The notes under the pieces: generated by a model
What the model was told of the DNA's origin: nothing
Seen by the model: only the letters and a program-made list of their open reading frames with translations
The model's database searches: none
In this document: in pieces, positions 376 to 8,376 of the stretch
Layout of the letters: every line of letters starts with the position of its first letter
Position numbering within the stretch: position 1 is the first letter of the stretch
Assembly (NCBI GenBank): GCA_043816965.1
Contig: JBDRHK010000069.1
Coordinates: 1-10,267, forward strand
Length of the DNA: 10,267 nt
DNA from: Candidatus Iainarchaeum sp.
Lineage (GTDB): Archaea > Iainarchaeota > Iainarchaeia > Iainarchaeales > JAFCCJ01
Direction: 5' to 3'
Program-made: the position numbers and the translations under genes

Positions 376-1668
376 ATGGCTGACATAAAAGTGCCGGATT
401 TAAAAGTCGGGAAGTTAAAAACAAACACCCTGCTGATTCTCGCAGGCGTTGTTTTCGCTGGCCTAATTATAATAATTCTTTTGTTCACCCTGTTTGGTCA
501 GCCTGCCGATGACGGTGTTGTGCCTGAATGCACTAGTGCTGCGGACTGCGAGGGAATGCAATCAGCAATTGCCTGTTACCCCTACAGCTGGAGCTGTGTT
601 GAGGGGAGTTGCGTTGCAAACTGCAGTCCATCCTGCAAAGAGAAATGGAGCTGTGGCGATTGGGGAGAATGTTCAAATGGCACAAGAGTCAGGGATTGCG
701 TTGAACTGAATGGCTGCAGCACCAGCTTAGAAAGGCCTGTTGAAAAGGAACCTTGTACCGAAGTTCCTGTCGATTACTGCATTGGCGCTAGTGATTGCGA
801 TGGCAAGGGCCTGATTCATGCCGATTGTGTGGGAAGCTGGGAGTGTGTAAGCAATAAGTGCGACTGGGACTGCGAAATAATCCCCCCAATAACCCCTCCT
901 GACACAACAGGGCCGATAATTAACCTTGATTTCGGGGAAAGTGTTGAGGTTAATGGCATTGAATTTGACCTTGTGAAAATTGAAGAATATCCGAGAATCC
1001 TGAGCGGTTACAGGAATTCAATTAATTTGCAGACCGCCACTAAAACCAAAACATACCTGACAGCCTGGGTTAAGGTTGTAAACAACAGTTCAGAAACCGT
1101 AAACATAACCGCCTCGAACTTTTCAGGAACTGATGATTTGGGAAATTCCTATGGTTTGGGGACCGGAATAAGGTATGATGCCCTGAATTCAAGGGCAGGA
1201 AGGCTTGCTCCTGGGCTTACAATAGCTGGCACAATAATCTGGGAGGTTCCTGAGGCGGCGAAAGCATTCACTGTTGAGTTTGATTTCACCAATCTGAATA
1301 CAGATAAGGAGATGCTGATTTGGGCAATTCCTGAAAGTGCGGTTACGCCAAGGGAATGCACTGGTTTTGACAAGGTCCAGTATCTTGCGCACTACTACAA
1401 TGAGGCAAGGGGGGAATTCCAGTTTGCCTTCAAGAATAACAGCGGAAAGGTGTGGAAAGAATATGAATTGGTAGTTGATGGCAATTCATCAATGGCGGTC
1501 TTTGACCAGCCAAGGCAGTTCCTGCAGTCATTTACCGATGTTATTGTTTATGTGCCGATGGACAAGGCGGCCATTGCAGTGGGCAAGCCATTTGATTTAA
1601 CCCTTGATTACAATGTTTTACTGGGTGACTTCTTCACGGAAAATGCAACGTGCACATACAGCACTTAA
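376..1668 (+). CDS. Membrane-anchored surface protein: N-terminal TM helix, three 6-Cys modules (central one thrombospondin-type-1-like), Pro/Thr linker, DUF4352-like Ig-fold domain, C-terminal domain
   Basis: 430-aa ORF. Basic N-terminus then hydrophobic aa ~19-40. 18 Cys in aa 52-166, including WSCGDWGECSNGTRVRDC. The pattern YLTAWVKVVNNSSETVNITASNF...DDLGNSY...LAPG...GTIIWEVP resembles DUF4352. Several N-x-S/T sequons. Confidence 0.8.
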   Translation: MADIKVPDLKVGKLKTNTLLILAGVVFAGLIIIILLFTLFGQPADDGVVPECTSAADCEGMQSAIACYPYSWSCVEGSCVANCSPSCKEKWSCGDWGECSNGTRVRDCVELNGCSTSLERPVEKEPCTEVPVDYCIGASDCDGKGLIHADCVGSWECVSNKCDWDCEIIPPITPPDTTGPIINLDFGESVEVNGIEFDLVKIEEYPRILSGYRNSINLQTATKTKTYLTAWVKVVNNSSETVNITASNFSGTDDLGNSYGLGTGIRYDALNSRAGRLAPGLTIAGTIIWEVPEAAKAFTVEFDFTNLNTDKEMLIWAIPESAVTPRECTGFDKVQYLAHYYNEARGEFQFAFKNNSGKVWKEYELVVDGNSSMAVFDQPRQFLQSFTDVIVYVPMDKAAIAVGKPFDLTLDYNVLLGDFFTENATCTYST

Positions 1669-2402
1669 GCCAATTCTTTCAGTTTACCGAAGAAATAGGG
1701 CCTATCTTCCACAACCCAGACCTCAAATTCCTGCAAATCCTGTTTCAGGAAAGGGCTGAGCCTTTTCTCCCTGGTTATGTCAGCCCCTATGGAAATTGCG
1801 TTCAGGGAAGGCATAACAACAAGGGTTTTCCCTTTCCACTTCCCACGCAAAAAGCATTTGAATAGTTCATGCTTTGCCCCCTCGCTGATTGAAACCGCAG
1901 GATGCTCATGGGCAATAACAATTGTTTTCGCGGAATCAATTTTCCCGGGTTCTGTCTTGTTGCCATGGAGGAAAAGCAGTTTCCCTTCCCCGAGGAAAAA
2001 TTCATCTAGAATTTCAATTCCCTCCCATTTTGCAATTGGGCCCAAAATGGAATCATGGTTTCCCTTTACAAGAATAATTTTTTTGCAGTATTTCTGCAGG
2101 AAACGGAGCAAGTCAATAACCTCGTTCCATTCCTGCTCGGAAATTGTCCCAAACTCATGCTTCAAATCCCCGTTTATAAGGATAAATTCAATTCCCTTAC
2201 CCCCTTTTTTCAAAACAGAAAACACCCTCTCCCTCAGCCTTTTCTGAATCTCCTTAAAATTGAACCTTGGAAGCAGCACTCCTTCCTTGTTCATCATTCC
2301 CTCATAGCCAAGATGCAGGTCTGCAATTGCAAGCAGTTTGCGCTTTTGCGAGTAAAGGGAAAGGTCAACTATCTCCCATCCGGGAATAATTTCATCAGCC
2401 AT
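1665..2402 (-). CDS. Calcineurin-like metallophosphoesterase (COG1407 / Lhr-associated MPE, PdeM-like nuclease)
   Basis: Motifs ADLHLG, NGDLKH, KGNHD, LHG, HEHP, then MPS. Start reassigned to ATG 2402 (MADEIIPG, 245 aa) because GGGGGTG lies at 2417-2411 and the 2462 start would overlap lhr. Confidence 0.9.
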   Translation of the reverse strand: MADEIIPGWEIVDLSLYSQKRKLLAIADLHLGYEGMMNKEGVLLPRFNFKEIQKRLRERVFSVLKKGGKGIEFILINGDLKHEFGTISEQEWNEVIDLLRFLQKYCKKIILVKGNHDSILGPIAKWEGIEILDEFFLGEGKLLFLHGNKTEPGKIDSAKTIVIAHEHPAVSISEGAKHELFKCFLRGKWKGKTLVVMPSLNAISIGADITREKRLSPFLKQDLQEFEVWVVEDRPYFFGKLKELA

Positions 2403-2424
2403 AATAAAAACACCCCCAAAAAAT

Positions 2425-5025
2425 TTAAGATTTTGACTTAATCCTGCTTTCAATTTCTGCATGCATCCTCTGAAGGAATTCCAATCTATCTTCCATTTTC
2501 AGCAAATCCATTCTCCCCTGCATGGCAATATTTATCGCAAATGGGGAGGGAATTTCAGTATTTATTCTCTCAAGCTTTATTTTTCCCTGCTCAATCTCCC
2601 CAATAATCAGGCCCGCATGCCCAATATCCATCAAATCCTCCAAAACCTCCCGCCTTGCCTCCTTCAATATGCTGAAATCGTTTGAAATTCTCTTCACTGC
2701 AGCAATAAGCAAACGTGCTGACATCTGCTGCCGTCCTGCGCTTTTCCTTCTCCCGCGGTATGAGCGCAGAATCATCAAACTCCTGACCGCGCAATGCCTG
2801 AACCTCCTCCCCAAAACCTCTGTCCTTTCAATCGCCATTTTCAGCAGTTCCCTGAGCTCATTGCTTTTCACCGCCCCCAGTGCCTTATCTATATTCATTT
2901 TTGAGTCGCTGCTCAGCATAAAGCCATTGTCATTGATGCTTATCTCCACATCCCTCCTGCTGAGTTTGGAGAGGGCAAAGCCATATGCCCTGCTCAAGGC
3001 GTCATTTGTCCTTCTCCCGAAAAGGGAATGGAAAACAATATTCTTTCTCCCCTGCTCATCCTCAAAGAATTCTATCAGCAGCCTGTTCCTGTGCGGAATT
3101 TTTGCGTAAAAATACTGCTCCCTGAAATACTCATATATTGCGGTTGCGGCATTCTCCTCAAGGTAAAGGTATTTCATTATAAATTCAACAATTTCCTTGT
3201 TACTCCGCTTTGCCGCAAACTTTCCCTCCATCAATTTCCTGAATTCACCAATTTGCTCGGCCAAATCAAAGCTCAATGGAAGCATTTCGCTAAACCAGCT
3301 TGGAACTGTCGGAGGCCTTTTGTATGCCGCAGAAACCTGGGCATTCATTCCTGAGGCATAGTTGAAAACATAGCTTTGCCCCCCAAGGACAAAAACATCC
3401 CCTTTTTTTAGCCTCATCAAAAAGCCCTCGTCTATAGTTCCAATTAGGTGGTCCTTAATCTTCACCTTAATCCTTGCCTCATCAGGAATTGTGCCGATAT
3501 TTGTCATGTAAATAATCCTCGCCATCTTCCCCCTTTTGCCTATCATTCCTGTTTTTTCATCATGCCAGATTTTTCCATATACATGCCTAAGTTCAAGTGC
3601 GGAATATTCCCCGCTAAGGTAGCTTATCACCTCATTGAAATCCATTCTGGGAAGCTGCCTGTAGCAATAACTCCCCCTGATGAGCTTAAACAGCTCATCA
3701 ATATGAATCGGTTCCTCAATCGCAATCCCATAAATATGTTGCGCCAGAACATCTAAGCAATTCTCAGGAATCTGCAATTTATCAATTTTTTTCTCAAGTG
3801 CATTTTTCAAAAGAACGGCACACTCAACCAAATCATCCCTGTCCATTACAATTATTCTTCCCTTAATCTTCTCGTGGAGCTGGTGCCCGCTCCTTCCCAT
3901 CCTCTGTATTGCCCTTGCAACACTTTTTGGGCTGCCCAAAAGCACAACCAAATCTATGTAGCCGATGTCAATTCCCAATTCAAGGGATGTTGAACATACG
4001 ACTGTTTTCAACTTCCCCTGTTTTAATCTCTCCTCAACATTCAGCCTCATTTCCCTGGAAAGGGAGGAGTGATGGGCGCCAATATTCCCCTCTGAGTAAA
4101 GGGTCGGGAATTTGTCCTTTAGATTATGGACAACCCTCTCAGTGGCCGACCTTGTGTTTGTAAAAATCAATGTTGTTTTATGGTCCTGAATCAGCTGGTG
4201 CAGTTTGCCGTAAAGGGCCTCATGTATCTGCCCTTGCGTGGTGTTGACCATGTCCCTTAAGGGGGAAATCACTTTCAGGTCCATTTTCTTGAGGAAGGAA
4301 ACATCAATAATCCTGCAATCCCTTGGCTCATTTTTGCCTTTGTTCCCAACCAGAAAATTCGCGACCTTTTCCAGCGGCGCAACTGTTGCGCTCAGGCCAA
4401 TCCTTGTCATTTCCGGGCTCAGGCGCCGGAGCCTTTCCAGTGAAAGTGAGAGGTGAACCCCCCTTTTGTTCTCCGCAAGGGAATGGATTTCATCAATTAT
4501 GCACCAATTTACCCCCCTTAAATTTTCCCTGAACTTTGGCGCGTTCAGCAGTATCGCAAGTGATTCAGGGGTTGTAATGAGAATATGCGGGGGCTTCCTG
4601 AGCATCTTTGACCTTTCAGATGTGGAGGTATCGCCGGTTCTTACCGCCACCCTAACATCAATTTTTTTCTTTATTTTTTTCGCCGCTGTTTTTATTTCCC
4701 CTAATGGTTCATTCAGGTTCCTTTCAATATCATTGCTCAGGGCGCGCAAAGGGGAAATGTAAACACAATAAACCCTGTCCTCAAGCCCCCCGGATTCTGA
4801 AAGGCCAATCAATTCACTCAAAATTGCGGTGAATGCTGAAAGTGTTTTGCCAGTCCCTGTTTCCGCGCTTACAAGGGTGTCAAGGCGGTTGTGGATGTTG
4901 AGGATTGAGTAGCGCTGGGGCTCTGTAAATGTGGAGAACTTCCACTTGAACCATGCCCCCATCAAGGGGTTCAGAACGCGGTAGATTTCCGCATCAGAAT
5001 GCTTTTCCTTCTGTAATTCAATCAA
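2425..5025 (-). CDS. lhr: ATP-dependent SF2 helicase Lhr (Lhr-core, COG1201)
   Basis: Q motif (FTEPQ), I AETGTGKT, Ia YISPLRAL, II DEIH, III SAT, IV FTNTR, V STSLELGID, VI QRMGRSGH, plus Lhr-typical GTIPD, PSW, RRFRH and PSPFA. Probable start is TTG at 5025 after GGTGAGG (5035-5029) rather than 5052. Confidence 0.95.
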   Translation of the reverse strand: MIELQKEKHSDAEIYRVLNPLMGAWFKWKFSTFTEPQRYSILNIHNRLDTLVSAETGTGKTLSAFTAILSELIGLSESGGLEDRVYCVYISPLRALSNDIERNLNEPLGEIKTAAKKIKKKIDVRVAVRTGDTSTSERSKMLRKPPHILITTPESLAILLNAPKFRENLRGVNWCIIDEIHSLAENKRGVHLSLSLERLRRLSPEMTRIGLSATVAPLEKVANFLVGNKGKNEPRDCRIIDVSFLKKMDLKVISPLRDMVNTTQGQIHEALYGKLHQLIQDHKTTLIFTNTRSATERVVHNLKDKFPTLYSEGNIGAHHSSLSREMRLNVEERLKQGKLKTVVCSTSLELGIDIGYIDLVVLLGSPKSVARAIQRMGRSGHQLHEKIKGRIIVMDRDDLVECAVLLKNALEKKIDKLQIPENCLDVLAQHIYGIAIEEPIHIDELFKLIRGSYCYRQLPRMDFNEVISYLSGEYSALELRHVYGKIWHDEKTGMIGKRGKMARIIYMTNIGTIPDEARIKVKIKDHLIGTIDEGFLMRLKKGDVFVLGGQSYVFNYASGMNAQVSAAYKRPPTVPSWFSEMLPLSFDLAEQIGEFRKLMEGKFAAKRSNKEIVEFIMKYLYLEENAATAIYEYFREQYFYAKIPHRNRLLIEFFEDEQGRKNIVFHSLFGRRTNDALSRAYGFALSKLSRRDVEISINDNGFMLSSDSKMNIDKALGAVKSNELRELLKMAIERTEVLGRRFRHCAVRSLMILRSYRGRRKSAGRQQMSARLLIAAVKRISNDFSILKEARREVLEDLMDIGHAGLIIGEIEQGKIKLERINTEIPSPFAINIAMQGRMDLLKMEDRLEFLQRMHAEIESRIKSKS

Positions 5026-5081
5026 CAGCCTCACCAGACTTCTACATAACAAGGGTTGATCATAAGTTAACCCCCTATAGA

Positions 5082-5133: not shown

Positions 5134-6300
5134 TCAGAAAAAAACTCCAACCACAATCAGAAATATGATGGAAATAATAATAAGTCCAATAAATATGGCT
5201 GCCCCTGCAATTGCCCCTTCCTTAATCCCATTTTTTGCCGCAAGGTAAACCGGCACCCCAAATCCGAGGGCCAAAGACACCAAAAGCCCGAGGAAAAGGG
5301 TTAGCATTACAATAAGCCCCATAACTGAGTAGGAAATCATTGAATCAAGAAGCACAAGTAAAATAAATGCCCCTATCCAGAAGAGAATCAATGCAAGGGA
5401 AACAGCGAATCCAATTCCCGCCATTTTTATGTAAGGGTTTATTTTAGTTACTGCCTGCTTTTTTCCGGAATCTATTTTTCCGGAACCTGTTTTGTTGCCT
5501 TTTGCCAATGCCCTGCCAACAATTTTCAGTGCGGCAAGAACCACCAAAAGCAGAACAATTACCGCCAGAACTATCTCTAACCAAAAAAGCGCAAGAATGC
5601 TTTTTGAATACTCTCCCCTTACATGGAAACTCTCCCAGGGGTCCAAATTCTGCGCAGTTTTTACCAGCCCTTTTGTGTTGCGGATGCTGTCTGAGTATTG
5701 TTTGTACTCGTAGCTTGCCTCTGATGCAACACTCAATTTCTGCATCCCGCCAACATCAAGAAAATCTGTTTTGTAATCAACCTCTGCAGAACCGCCTTTC
5801 AGATTCAGGCCTTCCTGCACATTTACCGCGACCCTCACATACTCAACAAGTGCGGCATCCTTATCGACAATTGTTTTGAAATCAATATCCCAGTTCCCGA
5901 GCATATTTTGTGTTGCTGATTTTGAAATTTTGTAGAATAAAGTTATTGTGCTGCTTCCATAGGCAGGAATTTTATTTGGCAAATCCATTTTCAGGATTGT
6001 CGCATTGGAAGTTAATTCCTTTTCATAACTGATGCGCTCTGCCCCTGGCTGCTCCTGGACAAGTTTGTAAACAACAACCTGGTTTGGAATTTCAAAACTT
6101 AATTCCTCAATTGGCTCATCAGTTGTATTTTCAATAACAATCTGCGCCCTGACAACGGCATCACCTTCTCCGTCGAAACTTACAGCGTAATACTGCTCCT
6201 TATGGATGTAGCCGTCACTTATCAGGGCACTAGTGGGGGTGATTAGCGTAAGCAGGACAAGCAACGCAAAAATTGCCGAAAATATTTTTCCTGATTCCAT
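5134..6300 (-). CDS. Hypothetical membrane protein: signal peptide, ~210-aa extracellular beta-rich domain, about four C-terminal TM helices
   Basis: 388-aa ORF. N-terminus MESGKIFSAIFALLVLLTLITPTSA looks like a cleavable signal peptide. One hydrophobic segment, a basic loop, then three more hydrophobic segments. No catalytic motif recognised. Confidence 0.85.
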   Translation of the reverse strand: MESGKIFSAIFALLVLLTLITPTSALISDGYIHKEQYYAVSFDGEGDAVVRAQIVIENTTDEPIEELSFEIPNQVVVYKLVQEQPGAERISYEKELTSNATILKMDLPNKIPAYGSSTITLFYKISKSATQNMLGNWDIDFKTIVDKDAALVEYVRVAVNVQEGLNLKGGSAEVDYKTDFLDVGGMQKLSVASEASYEYKQYSDSIRNTKGLVKTAQNLDPWESFHVRGEYSKSILALFWLEIVLAVIVLLLVVLAALKIVGRALAKGNKTGSGKIDSGKKQAVTKINPYIKMAGIGFAVSLALILFWIGAFILLVLLDSMISYSVMGLIVMLTLFLGLLVSLALGFGVPVYLAAKNGIKEGAIAGAAIFIGLIIISIIFLIVVGVFF

Positions 6301-6320
6301 GAAGGCATTGTGCAGGGGGA

Positions 6321-6328
6321 TTTATAAA
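6321..6328 (-). promoter_or_regulatory. TATA box for the 388-aa gene (probably leaderless)
   Basis: TTTATAAA at -28..-21 from ATG 6300; no SD. The box is palindromic, so it could also act on the + strand. Confidence 0.65.
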
Positions 6329-6372
6329 TAACCGGCGAAATTGTGAGGAAAAAACCTAATCGAAATATATTC

Positions 6373-6389
6373 AAAAAACAGAGAAAAAA
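6373..6389 (-). terminator. Tandem oligo-T archaeal terminator after the structured RNA candidate
   Basis: - strand TTTTTT-CTCTG-TTTTTT begins 1 nt after the closing stem; a third T6 lies at 6354-6349. Confidence 0.6.
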
Positions 6390-6495
6390 TGAGGTGCGGG
6401 AGCCATGAAGTATAACACTTTTACTCTCTTAGCAGAGTGAGCTTGCTCCCGACCTATGTGCTTACCTATTTTGTCGCTTTAGGTTAAATCACCTC
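6390..6495 (-). ncRNA. Candidate ~105-nt structured non-coding RNA of unrecognised family
   Basis: Closing stem GAGGUG/CACCUC (6495-6490 with 6396-6391). Hairpin ACCUA/UAGGU. 7-bp stem CGGGAGC/GCUCCCG enclosing two hairpins (ACUCU/AGAGU, AAGU/ACUU). TATA at -30..-23 and oligo-T directly downstream. No sizeable ORF. Confidence 0.6.
6468..6487. repeat. 20-bp imperfect inverted repeat, right copy (partner 5082-5101), inside the ncRNA candidate
   Basis: ATTTTGTCGCTTTAGGTTAA; its reverse complement matches 5082-5101 at 18/20. Confidence 0.8.
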
Positions 6496-6517
6496 GAAAG
6501 TATAAAGGGCATTCTCA

Positions 6518-6525
6518 TTTATATA
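6518..6525 (-). promoter_or_regulatory. TATA box with purine-rich BRE-like flank, positioned to start transcription at about 6495
   Basis: - strand GCAAGA-TATATAAA; the first G of the GAGGTG stem falls at +1 with the box at -30..-23. Confidence 0.6.
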
Positions 6526-6585
6526 TCTTGCCGGAACTTTAAGCCGTGAATAAGTTGTTAAAGTGAAGGCGTTACATTCGTTGCT

Positions 6586-8376
6586 TCACGAAGTGCCTTT
6601 CCACAGATTAAGCCTTTCTTCAAGGCCTTTGTTTTCCTCAATTATCTCTTTGGGGATTTTATCAAATTTCTTGAAGAATTCCTTCTGTTCCCCGACTTCC
6701 TTAATCCAGTCTTCTTTATCCACCTTCAGGAGCTCATTAAGCTGCTCCTTGCCAATGTCCAGCCCGTTAAGGTCGATGGATTCAGGGTTGGGCAAGAAGC
6801 CAATAGGGGTTTTAACAGCGTCAACTCGCCCCTCGCTCCTGTCAATTACCCATTTAAGCACCCTCAAATTCTCCCCAAAACCAGGCCACATAAAATCGCC
6901 TTTCTCATCTGTCCTGAACCAGTTTACATGGAATATCTTCGGTGCATTTTCCAGATTTTTTCCCATATTAAGCCAATGCTGGAAGTAATCTCCCATATGA
7001 TAGCCACAGAAAGGCAGCATTGCCATTGGGTCTCTTCTTGCTTCACCAATTTTGCCCTCAGCCGCCGCAGTTTTCTCCGAGGCAAGTGTTGCGCCAATAA
7101 AAGTCCCGTGCTGCCAGTTGAATGACTCATAAACAAGCGGGTCAAGTTTTGCCCTTCTCCCCCCAAAAAGGATTGCTGAAATCGGAACCCCTTTGGGGTT
7201 CCCCCACTCTTCTGAAAACGAAGGTGCCTGATGAATAGGGGCAGTAAACCTTGAGTTTGGGTGGGCACCTGGCTCATTTGAATCCGGAGTCCATCTCTCC
7301 CCTTTCCAGTCGGTTCCTCCCTTAATCTCGTGGCCAATTCCTTCCCACCACACAGTATTATCGTCACTAAGGACAACATTTGTGAAAATGCTGTTTTTCT
7401 GGACAGACTCCATTGCATTTGGGTTTGTTTTATTGCTTGTTCCTGGCGCCACACCGAAAAATCCTGCCTCAGGGTTTATCGCCCATAACCTTCCATCTTT
7501 TCCGATTCGCATCCAGCAGATATCATCTCCCACAGTCCAGATTTTATAGCCTTTGTAATTTGTTGGCGGGACAAGCATTGCAAGATTTGTTTTTCCACAG
7601 GCGCTTGGAAATGCCGCCGCAATGTAATGGATTTCTCCCTCAGGTGATTCAATTCCCATAATCAGCATATGCTCCGCCATCCAGCCTTCCTTTGATGCCA
7701 TATGGCTGGCAATCCTGAGTGAAAGGCATTTTTTCCCGAGAAGTGCATTCCCCCCATAACCAGAGCCCACACTCCATATTGTATTGTCCTCTGGAAAGTG
7801 GCAAATCCTCCTTTTTTCAATATCCAAATCTGATTTACCATGCAGGCATTTTGTGAAATTATCAGAATCCCCGAGAATTTCAAGGGCCCTTTTTCCTGCC
7901 CTAGTCATAGTCATCATATTGAGCACAACATAAATACTGTCAGTAATCTGAATCCCTATTTTGCTGAAATCAGAGCCAAGCGGGCCCATACTGAAGGGAA
8001 TCAGATACATTGTCCTCCCTTTCATAGAGTTGTCGAAATATCCGCCCAGTTCCTCATAAGCCTCATTAGGATGTTTCCAGTTGTTAAGAGGTCCTGCAGT
8101 AACTTGTTCCTCTGTGCAGATAAAGGTAAGGCTTTCAGTTCTTGCAACATCATTTTGCGCCGAGCGGTGAAGAAAGCAACCAGGAAGTTTTTCCTGGTCA
8201 AGTTCAATAAGTTCCCCTGTTTTAAGCGCCTCTTTTGTAAGCGCCTGCTTCTGTTCATCAGAACCATCAATCCAGACAACATCATCCGGCTTGCACATCT
8301 CAGCCATTTCCTCAATCCAAGCAATCAGCTCTTTATTCGAGGTAATTGTTTCAATTTTATCCCTGTATTTTCCCAT
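6586..8376 (-). CDS. pckG: Phosphoenolpyruvate carboxykinase (GTP)
   Basis: 596 aa. SGYGGNALLGKKC, AEHM, P-loop FPSACGKTN, VGDDI, NPEAGFFGVAPG, HPNSRF, FGGRR, VNWF, WPGFGENLRVL. SD GGGGTGA overlaps the upstream stop codon. Confidence 0.97.
   Translation of the reverse strand: MGKYRDKIETITSNKELIAWIEEMAEMCKPDDVVWIDGSDEQKQALTKEALKTGELIELDQEKLPGCFLHRSAQNDVARTESLTFICTEEQVTAGPLNNWKHPNEAYEELGGYFDNSMKGRTMYLIPFSMGPLGSDFSKIGIQITDSIYVVLNMMTMTRAGKRALEILGDSDNFTKCLHGKSDLDIEKRRICHFPEDNTIWSVGSGYGGNALLGKKCLSLRIASHMASKEGWMAEHMLIMGIESPEGEIHYIAAAFPSACGKTNLAMLVPPTNYKGYKIWTVGDDICWMRIGKDGRLWAINPEAGFFGVAPGTSNKTNPNAMESVQKNSIFTNVVLSDDNTVWWEGIGHEIKGGTDWKGERWTPDSNEPGAHPNSRFTAPIHQAPSFSEEWGNPKGVPISAILFGGRRAKLDPLVYESFNWQHGTFIGATLASEKTAAAEGKIGEARRDPMAMLPFCGYHMGDYFQHWLNMGKNLENAPKIFHVNWFRTDEKGDFMWPGFGENLRVLKWVIDRSEGRVDAVKTPIGFLPNPESIDLNGLDIGKEQLNELLKVDKEDWIKEVGEQKEFFKKFDKIPKEIIEENKGLEERLNLWKGTS

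Follow-up and report, generated by a model that had tools for sequence, protein, structure and literature searches.

Within a 10,267-nt stretch of the Candidatus Iainarchaeum sp. contig JBDRHK010000069.1 (assembly GCA_043816965.1; "the window" below means this whole stretch of DNA), the minus strand carries what is very probably a stand-alone small RNA gene of ~106 nt, with its own TATA box, an upstream element and an oligo-T terminator, which we assign as type I of an uncatalogued two-paralogue RNA family of the order Iainarchaeales. An earlier note on this DNA had described the locus as an orphan structured noncoding RNA gene with its own promoter and terminator. The stand-alone gene is borne out—TATA spacing and T-run are kept in relatives, neighbors vary, and covariation is strong—but "orphan" has to be given up, as the RNA is one of two paralogues of a family found across Iainarchaeales. 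The window genome (G000) is a metagenome-assembled genome (MAG) of this DPANN order, with a 1.34-Mb assembly that is 86% complete, and G001 is a genome of the same genus; other numbers with G, C, L, or f are our handles for genomes, contigs, loci, and families.

The assignment rests on comparative evidence. The window RNA scores 97.6 bits (E 8.6e-24) against a covariance model of the family (R2, described below) and contains every hallmark by which we define that family: a covarying stem, the motif (A/G)GCUCAC, a hairpin with a GCYAA loop, a TATA box ~20 nt upstream, and a T-run after the last helix. Relatives occur across Iainarchaeales, and the GC-rich stem P3 (6451..6445 paired with 6403..6397) shows changes on both sides at 7/7 pairs across 31 distinct relatives. 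Because conserved promoters, synteny, and covariation extend over an order of ~200 species, the family is very likely important to the cells that carry it, and it gives annotators a model for a gene currently left blank in Iainarchaeales MAGs. What the RNA does is far less certain: mimicry of Shine-Dalgarno (SD) and anti-SD sequences is one tentative possibility, weighed below against its alternatives.

Gene structure, promoter, and terminator

The gene and its parts, in window coordinates, are as follows.

6533..6567, minus strand: upstream promoter element, made of TTCAC (6567..6563), TTCAC (6550..6546), and AGTTCC (6538..6533); a probable regulator-binding site
6518..6525, minus strand: TATA box TATATAAA, at -30..-23 from G6495
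6390..6495, minus strand: type I small RNA, 106 nt, from G6495 to A6390, its 5' end placed by TATA spacing
6488..6495, minus strand: 5' end GAGGUGAU, Shine-Dalgarno-like; 6495..6490 are the 5' strand of the closing helix P1
6452..6483, minus strand: variable 5' domain, unalignable between families
6445..6451, minus strand: P3 5' strand CGGGAGC, with both-side changes at 7/7 pairs
6423..6444, minus strand: invariant core, AAGCUC (6444..6439) followed by the hairpin ACUCU-GCUAAG-AGAGU (6438..6423)
6408..6420, minus strand: AAGU-GUUAU-ACUU hairpin, non-conserved (only in G000 and G001; absent from G023, G102, G103, and G020)
6397..6403, minus strand: P3 3' strand GCUCCCG
6391..6396, minus strand: P1 3' strand CACCUC, identical to six bases of the 16S 3' tail
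6373..6389, minus strand: terminator-like T6 (6389..6384), CTCTG (6383..6379), and T6 (6378..6373)
6321..6328, minus strand: TATA box TTTATAAA, outside the RNA, belonging to the downstream 388-aa gene and lying 20 nt ahead of that gene's ATG

The TATA box at -30..-23 and the T6-N5-T6 run after the last stem, both named in the earlier note, are present in the sequence as described, and their placement recurs in relatives. A TATA-like box ends 18–22 nt before the first helix in 7/7 of the first-found homologues and is seen in the wider set; a T-run directly follows the last helix in the same 7/7 and in most of the wider set. The layout TTCAC...TTCAC...AGTKCC ahead of the TATA box is found in type I genes of other families too, and within G000 the combination of TTCAC/AGTKCC with a following promoter occurs only at this gene (one of three regular-expression matches). 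Transcription of the gene is predicted from sequence.

The minus-strand 106-mer folds to -31.8 kcal/mol, as against -22.2 ± 3.1 kcal/mol in 200 dinucleotide shuffles (z -3.15; 0/200 as good). The plus strand also folds fairly well (z -2.51; 3/200 shuffles as good), yet the minus strand, over which the earlier note had been cautious, is now well supported by the TATA box and T-run placement in relatives and by the G-U pairs of P3, which exist on one strand only and would become A-C mismatches on the other. The plus-strand fold, together with the fact that the RNA gene is known here from sequence alone, is what could be said for the view that the locus is no RNA at all, being instead a DNA-level element or a chance fold. 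We regard that as extremely unlikely given compensatory changes that include one-strand G-U pairs, TATA boxes and T-runs matched in strand in all lineages, and a distribution of one to two copies with conserved synteny.

Five helices had originally been drawn for the RNA, and they fare unequally. Comparative support exists for P1, P3, and the ACUCU/AGAGU hairpin; the ACCUA/UAGGU helix is lineage-specific, and AAGU/ACUU is confined to the two same-genus copies. In the window RNA itself, ACCUA (6483..6479) has two possible partners, UAGGU at 6468..6464 or at 6456..6452, and the minimum-free-energy fold takes the second, where the earlier note had drawn the first.

Relatives across Iainarchaeales

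A BLAST search with 201 nt returned the same-genus copy (89% identical over 200 nt) and a core of 30–38 nt in three other families. A 17-mer pattern searched with at most one mismatch matched 13/196 genomes of the order, where the reversed control pattern gave seven matches in six genomes; by inspection, the true homologues among these matches came from seven genomes. The core 20-mer occurs exactly in seven genomes from five families of the order, and once in G000. Across 185,579 species genomes it was found in 14 stretches, six of them from Iainarchaeales MAGs and eight bacterial ones without the flanking stems. A metagenome scan gave six further stretches, of which L044 is the same bacterial sequence as L032, and the other five consist of two identical copies from one new lineage and near matches to the copies of G026, G020, and G023.

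A first covariance model built from the two same-genus copies (R1) misplaced P1 in 5/9 lineages, and MAFFT alone misaligned the 3' strands. The second model (R2), built from nine type I sequences, was for this reason restricted in its structure to P3 (the 7-bp stem) and the core hairpin, and P1, being omitted from R2, was tested separately. R2 matches 52/151 genomes of the order at E<=0.1 and 39/151 genomes at E<=0.01 in a phylum-wide sample; 0/11 genomes from five families outside the order matched. It finds second copies in G000, G001, G017, G020, G023, G120, G121, and G123, and returns between zero and two matches in families f3, f11, and f28.

The relatives share a common build. From 5' to 3' they have a G-rich 5' end; a short UUNAAY or CUAAA segment; a variable A-rich spacer or hairpin; a GC-rich stem enclosing (A/G)GCUCAC and a small GCYAA-loop hairpin; and a pyrimidine-rich closing 3' end. 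Covariation was assessed on a model-fitted alignment of 32 members (31 distinct), which leans toward the structure by construction: 94.2% of its cells are paired, versus 71.4% in shuffles (0/500 as high) and 30–53% when the partner column is slid. P3 stems read by hand—CGGGAGC/GCUCCCG, UUUGGAGG/CCUCCAAA, CAACUGAAAU/AUUUCAGUUG, and GGCCGGGGAG/CUUCCCGGCC—agree with the alignment, as do the slid controls. The ACUCU/AGAGU hairpin changes on both sides at 3/5 pairs. Its first two pairs never vary to another standard pair (A-U in 26/31, C-G in 29/31), and GCUCAC and the GCYAA loop are kept in both paralogue types. Outside the core, neither the junction nor the 5' domain shows conservation.

P1 occurs in compensatory versions between lineages (GAGGUG/CACCUC, GAGGCGG/CCGCCUC, and GGAGAUGG/CCAUCUCC), and in a duplex test cognate ends paired better than non-cognate ends in 13/20 type I RNAs. 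These 13 are all ten of family f21 (seven outright; in three, one of nine non-cognates was equally good) plus G000, G001, and G023. The cognate advantage is absent from the remaining 7/20, which have a GGUGGUU-type 5' end (six of them GGUGGUUGAAC). In G000 and G026 the segment preceding P3 could rival the 5' end as partner of the 3' end and so form a two-state switch; L042, G023, and the "D" lineage do not show this, and it is no family feature.

Two paralogues and their neighbors

Type I and type II RNAs differ in their starts, their architecture, and their surroundings, with one to three R2 matches per genome and synteny conserved for both types. Type I begins with GAGGUGRUUKAAC, or with GGAGAUGGUUUAAY in family f21, and its two ends are joined by the closing helix. 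Type II begins with GGGGGGAUCCAAUCCUAAAAAG or GGAGGGAUUCAAUUCUAG, continues with an A-rich linker and one long hairpin, and measures 93–98 nt. The type II RNA of G000 (C15:30786-30879, minus strand; locus L077 1501-1594) scores 40 bits with R2 and starts with GGGGGGAUCCAAUCC, followed by the A-rich linker and a long hairpin that contains UAGGCUCACC.

Upstream of type I lies a gene for phosphoenolpyruvate carboxykinase (PEPCK) in G000, G006, and G089 and for phosphoribosyl pyrophosphate synthetase in G020, G026, and G096; in G023 the RNA sits between SRP54 and FtsY. An Lhr-type helicase gene follows on the same strand in five lineages (G000, with one gene between, and G102, G103, G088, and G089). 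Such an arrangement, with a T-run between the RNA and the next gene, would suit a cis-acting leader or attenuator whose T-run ends transcription conditionally ahead of the gene that follows (encoding the 388-aa membrane protein here and the Lhr helicase in other lineages). We consider this very improbable. The downstream gene has its own TATA box—TTTATAAA, on which the earlier note had already based its view that the RNA is not simply a leader, and whose surrounding region is conserved in the same-genus genome—and across lineages the downstream genes differ or lie on the other strand: no Lhr gene follows in G001, G026, G017, and others have their flanking genes on the opposite strand, and type II RNAs are convergent with a topoisomerase gene. 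Because neighbors vary and the downstream gene has its own promoter, we do not treat the family as a leader, or the RNA as a riboswitch of that kind.

The surroundings of type II are more constant. A gene for an Lrp/AsnC-like protein, which we call X, lies divergently upstream in 14/16 type II loci; one more has it by coordinates, and the last is at a contig end. On the other side, topoisomerase IA is convergent with the RNA in 10/10 of the downstream open reading frames (ORFs) submitted. The topoisomerase IA beside the type II RNA of G002 (locus L054 2-1495) carries an internal LAGLIDADG_3 domain, and that gene probably holds an intein. In G000, X is encoded at C15:31017-31544 on the plus strand (locus L090; 180 aa; relatives L083-L112). 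It has no Pfam match above cut-off and resembles Pyrococcus LrpA (1i1g; E 5.5e-6), and X is present in 168/196 genomes of the order at roughly 40–65% identity. Among 30 X loci, 28 have a G(G)CYCAC motif on the opposite strand, 155–200 nt away from the start of X, 19 have an R2 match at E<=1 beside X, and 16 have a TGTR-N(6-11)-YACA palindrome within 170 nt of the X start, compared with 11/204 control windows from a run without strand orientation. Three type I genes (G053, G013, and G025) are divergent from a distant X relative with an HTH_24 domain, and on this basis the RNA and the Lrp-like gene may have duplicated as a unit.

The fixed core invites an explanation in which it is a protein site. 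Here GCUCAC, the two invariant pairs, and the GCYAA loop would be recognized in a sequence-specific manner, the RNA would act as a ribonucleoprotein component or protein decoy, and the stems would be scaffold. The lack of covariation at invariant pairs inside a helix is what such a site would look like, as is a core kept across the order in two paralogues while everything else drifts, and by our own reading GCYAA could fold like a GNRA-type loop. However, no candidate protein partner turned up, the neighbors of type I vary, and the constant neighbor of type II, X, looks like a DNA-binding Lrp/AsnC regulator with a palindrome near its start at half or so of its loci (the 16/30 above). The core hairpin, moreover, is lost or replaced in some type II copies (e.g., L085 and L091). 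With evidence on both sides, we hold a protein-binding role to be possible while doubting it.

Known RNA classes

No known class accounts for the RNA. Searched with the 4227 models of Rfam 15, the whole window gave no match at gathering scores; a search of 6250..6650 at E<=10 gave five chance-level matches of 12–15 bits, against cut-offs of 50–249, and 14 loci holding both paralogue types gave none. The RAGATH-32 model (RF02922) gave no score at the window locus, even at E<=10. The earlier view that the family has no name therefore stands. Its companion statement, that signatures of tRNA, 5S rRNA, signal recognition particle (SRP) RNA, RNase P RNA, and C/D RNA are absent, agrees with ARAGORN, Rfam, the genome's other RNAs, and our reading of the sequence.

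Several of these classes were considered individually. ARAGORN detects no tRNA or tmRNA gene in the window. A three-way junction had suggested 5S rRNA; the locus has no RF00001 match, and G000 has a normal 5S elsewhere (C76:25343-25459; 72.3 bits). For a minimal RNase P RNA there is no RF00373 match at the locus, and a standard RNase P RNA (92–120 bits) is present in 5/5 near-complete relatives that carry the small-RNA family; no RF00373 match was found in G000. The SRP RNA of G000 also lies outside the locus (C107:695-966, minus strand, locus L036; 138 bits) and is without 40 model positions, taken as helix 6. A helix 6 supplied in trans, which that gap and the position of the G023 RNA between SRP54 and FtsY had suggested, was set aside: SRP19 (PF01922) was not found in G000 or in five near-complete relatives, in a search of limited sensitivity whose control detected it in only 3/4 archaea. 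Three short motifs of the RNA had suggested a piece or mimic of the GTPase-associated region of 23S rRNA, and that reading was dropped: full-length 23S is present in G026 and G023, the region was read as intact in G026, and the locus has no large-subunit rRNA match. Full-length 23S and 16S genes are present in relatives; neither was found in G000, in which ARAGORN finds only 19 tRNAs. Because relatives have these RNAs, the gaps in G000 (RNase P RNA, rRNA genes, tRNAs) look like assembly incompleteness.

Guide RNAs fit no better. Box C/D RNAs have a C box (RUGAUGA) near the 5' end, a D box (CUGA) near the 3' end, and a kink-turn; the 5' GUGAUUU of the window RNA is only a partial C box, no CUGA lies near the 3' end, and at E<=10 the Rfam C/D models give nothing on the RNA, the only hit being sR4 (12.7 bits) at 6272..6319 on the plus strand. 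In archaeal H/ACA RNAs, the lower stem is followed directly by an ACA box, the upper stem contains a kink-turn or kink-loop, and the guide strands of the pocket vary. In this family the 3' ends (CACCUCA, CCUCUCU, UUCCCUA, CCAUCUCC) keep no ACA, tandem G-A is missing from the loop, and the pocket has an invariant 5' strand. By eye and against consensus sequences, none of T-loop, kink-turn, and 11-nt tetraloop receptor fits. A mobile hairpin repeat (REP- or MITE-like) was rejected because there are only one to three matches per genome and synteny is fixed, with the core 20-mer occurring once in G000.

A ligand-sensing aptamer or small ribozyme acting as free RNA would be consistent with a junction architecture around an invariant internal loop that no known class matches. 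Yet there is no linked regulated gene, no ribozyme or riboswitch model scores at E<=10, and the junction and 5' domain drift outside the core, so that this explanation carries little probability.

Complementarity to the 16S rRNA tail

The feature from which a function might be read is complementarity to the translation machinery. Our leading idea, offered tentatively, is a regulatory RNA that imitates the two sides of SD/anti-SD pairing and in this way influences translation initiation, a reading we think possible and by no means probable. The 5' end (GAGGUGAU in type I; GGGGGGAUCC or GGAGGGAUUC in type II) would be a "super-SD" that pairs with 8–10 bases of the 16S tail, and the invariant loop (GGCUCACC in type II; AGCUCAC in the window RNA), with the 3' end CACCUC of the window RNA, copies the tail and could thus cover the SD sequences on mRNAs. 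Within P1 of the window RNA, the tail-like 3' end would hold the SD-like 5' end shut, and activity would therefore need P1 to open. Lrp-like genes lying divergently, and motifs conserved upstream, hint at regulated transcription of both paralogues, and the oligo-U 3' end (both paralogues) and A-rich linker (type II) would suit the Lsm protein predicted from an LSM-domain gene in the genome. Binding to ribosomes or mRNAs, and any regulatory effect, are predictions here; the complementarity itself is observed.

That complementarity is strong. The 16S gene ends with GGAUCACCUCCU in 4/4 relatives, and the 5' end GAGGUGAU of the window RNA pairs with this tail at -14.6 kcal/mol, with the G000 type II RNA reaching -17.7 kcal/mol. 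Against 20,000 random 14-mers from the genome (mean -3.5, 0.1% point -13.5 kcal/mol), the type I value falls in the top 0.05%, and it is reached by 1.4% of 3,000 G-rich controls; the type II value is beaten by 0/20,000 random and 0/3,000 G-rich 14-mers. Among ORF leaders (n=1104, a crude set), six are as strong as the type I value and one as strong as the type II value. Across the family, the 5' 14-mers pair with the tail at <= -12.7 kcal/mol in 22/35 RNAs, a level reached neither by the f21 lineage (-10.7) nor by four others, and the two paralogues arrive at tail complementarity by different sequences and registers. The type II loop GGCUCACC matches 7/8 bases of the tail's GGAUCACC. SD sequences are in use in G000: a tail-complementary 5-mer starts at -20..-7 in 223/1104 crude ORFs, with a peak at -10. 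The loop shows no noteworthy pairing with tRNAs, 5S, or SRP RNA.

Several observations count against mimicry, and we give them weight. The 22/35 count overstates the support because homologues are not independent, and ten RNAs of the "D" lineage (-7.0 to -10.7 kcal/mol) and three others (-8.4 to -9.7) do no better than G-rich controls. The G-rich 5' strands of closing helices may resemble SD sequences by chance, the mimicry was spotted post hoc, and the 5' end used for pairing is itself placed by TATA spacing. P1 also ties up the SD-like end of the window RNA. The loop complement GGTGAGCC is not enriched in the genome (18 seen versus 20 expected), and its three cases placed at ribosome binding sites (pdxS twice, pgk) are about what SD frequency would lead one to expect. 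Finally, invariance of the first two hairpin pairs is something one would sooner expect where a protein or ligand binds than in a pairing seed.

An ordinary base-pairing small RNA (sRNA) would dispense with any general link to SD sequences: an exposed GCUCAC, aided by Lsm, would recognize a few specific mRNA targets, and the two paralogues would share this seed. The stand-alone and seemingly regulated gene, the oligo-U tails, the type II linker, and the LSM gene all suit such an sRNA, and the conserved strand is likely accessible because the strand opposite is long, variable, and A/U-rich. Archaeal sRNAs that act on ribosome binding sites are known as well (reviewed in PMC5867862). The difficulty is on the target side, where G000 yielded no complementary site that is enriched or kept in position, and where a seed unchanged across the order would require equally unchanged targets. 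We judge this explanation unlikely.

If SD/anti-SD mimicry did hold, the RNA could tune the balance between SD-led and leaderless mRNAs in an organism that mixes both. A more elaborate form of the proposal, in which the sister RNAs—each with its own Lrp-type regulator—make up a global switch between SD-led and leaderless mRNAs, or guard the 16S tail during subunit maturation or dormancy, is speculative, and we would give it rather low odds. To our knowledge, though no literature search was directed at this point, no dedicated RNA regulator of the initiation mode itself has been described in any domain of life.

Relation to known regulatory RNAs

Precedents exist in archaea for the separate elements of the proposal. 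A review (PMC5867862) describes how sRNA41 of Methanosarcina mazei masks ribosome binding sites, and that sRNAs are bound by the archaeal Lsm protein. Like sRNA41, the window RNA is a stand-alone archaeal sRNA; a sequence similar to the 16S 3' end is proposed to let it act at ribosome binding sites, and its expression is regulated, which for the window RNA is a prediction. Unlike sRNA41, whose targets are known, the window RNA has an SD-like 5' end and a second paralogue and is confined to Iainarchaeales, and the two show no relation in sequence or structure. In Haloferax volcanii, a valine tRNA fragment competes with mRNA on the small subunit, as two papers describe (PMC5711459, PMC11009984). 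Both it and the window RNA are small and archaeal, with a proposed effect on the small subunit and on mRNA binding; it differs in being a tRNA processing product that binds near the decoding site, where the window RNA would be a ~106-nt primary transcript of its own gene with predicted 16S-tail pairing. The Haloferax fragment is reportedly 26 nt long.

In bacteria, sibling sRNAs that share one seed include Qrr1-4 and OmrA/OmrB, which are Hfq-dependent. The Iainarchaeales family resembles these in having two paralogous genes with an identical conserved strand, a divergent remainder, an oligo-U tail (plus, in type II, an A-rich stretch), and a Sm-family protein in the genome; it differs in belonging to another domain of life, in lacking homology with them, and in having its conserved strand partly in a helix. 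Another comparison is with the Hgc RNAs, reportedly found by Klein, Misulovin and Eddy in 2002 as GC-rich structured RNA genes in AT-rich archaeal genomes. The window gene likewise specifies a structured RNA with its own promoter in a GC-rich, ORF-free island, but it has no match to the Rfam Hgc models, and what defines its family is a fixed core motif together with covariation seen in tens of genomes. The genomes of DPANN archaea are very small, and we know of almost no regulatory RNAs described from them; full-text literature searches on noncoding RNA in DPANN, Iainarchaeum, or Diapherotrites found nothing relevant.

Other observations on the window and its genome

The slot between an aminotransferase gene and the RNA (6586-8376, minus strand) encodes a GTP-dependent PEPCK in G000 and an archaeal-type phosphoenolpyruvate carboxylase (PEPcase_2) in G001 (locus L033 870-2333). 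One gene has here taken the place of another whose enzyme catalyzes the reverse reaction. On the other side of the RNA, the 388-aa membrane protein (5134-6300, minus strand; ATG at 6300) has a weak Peptidase_M50 match of 19 bits, below cut-off. Its G001 counterpart is 86% identical; in other lineages the gene was not found beside the RNA. Its promoter suggests that its mRNA is leaderless.

Further along the minus strand (1665-5052) lie an Lhr-type helicase gene (DEAD, Helicase_C, WH_Lhr, and DEAD_assoc domains) and then a calcineurin-like phosphoesterase gene, a pair that resembles the bacterial Lhr-MPE repair pair. The pair is missing from this place in G001, where a DUF4352 gene abuts the membrane-protein gene. 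Elsewhere in G000, two near-identical pdxS genes lie on separate contigs (C8:~1636 and C102:~1636, minus strand) with near-identical upstream regions, including AGGTGAGCC ahead of the ATG; they may represent a real duplication or strain-level redundancy in the bin.

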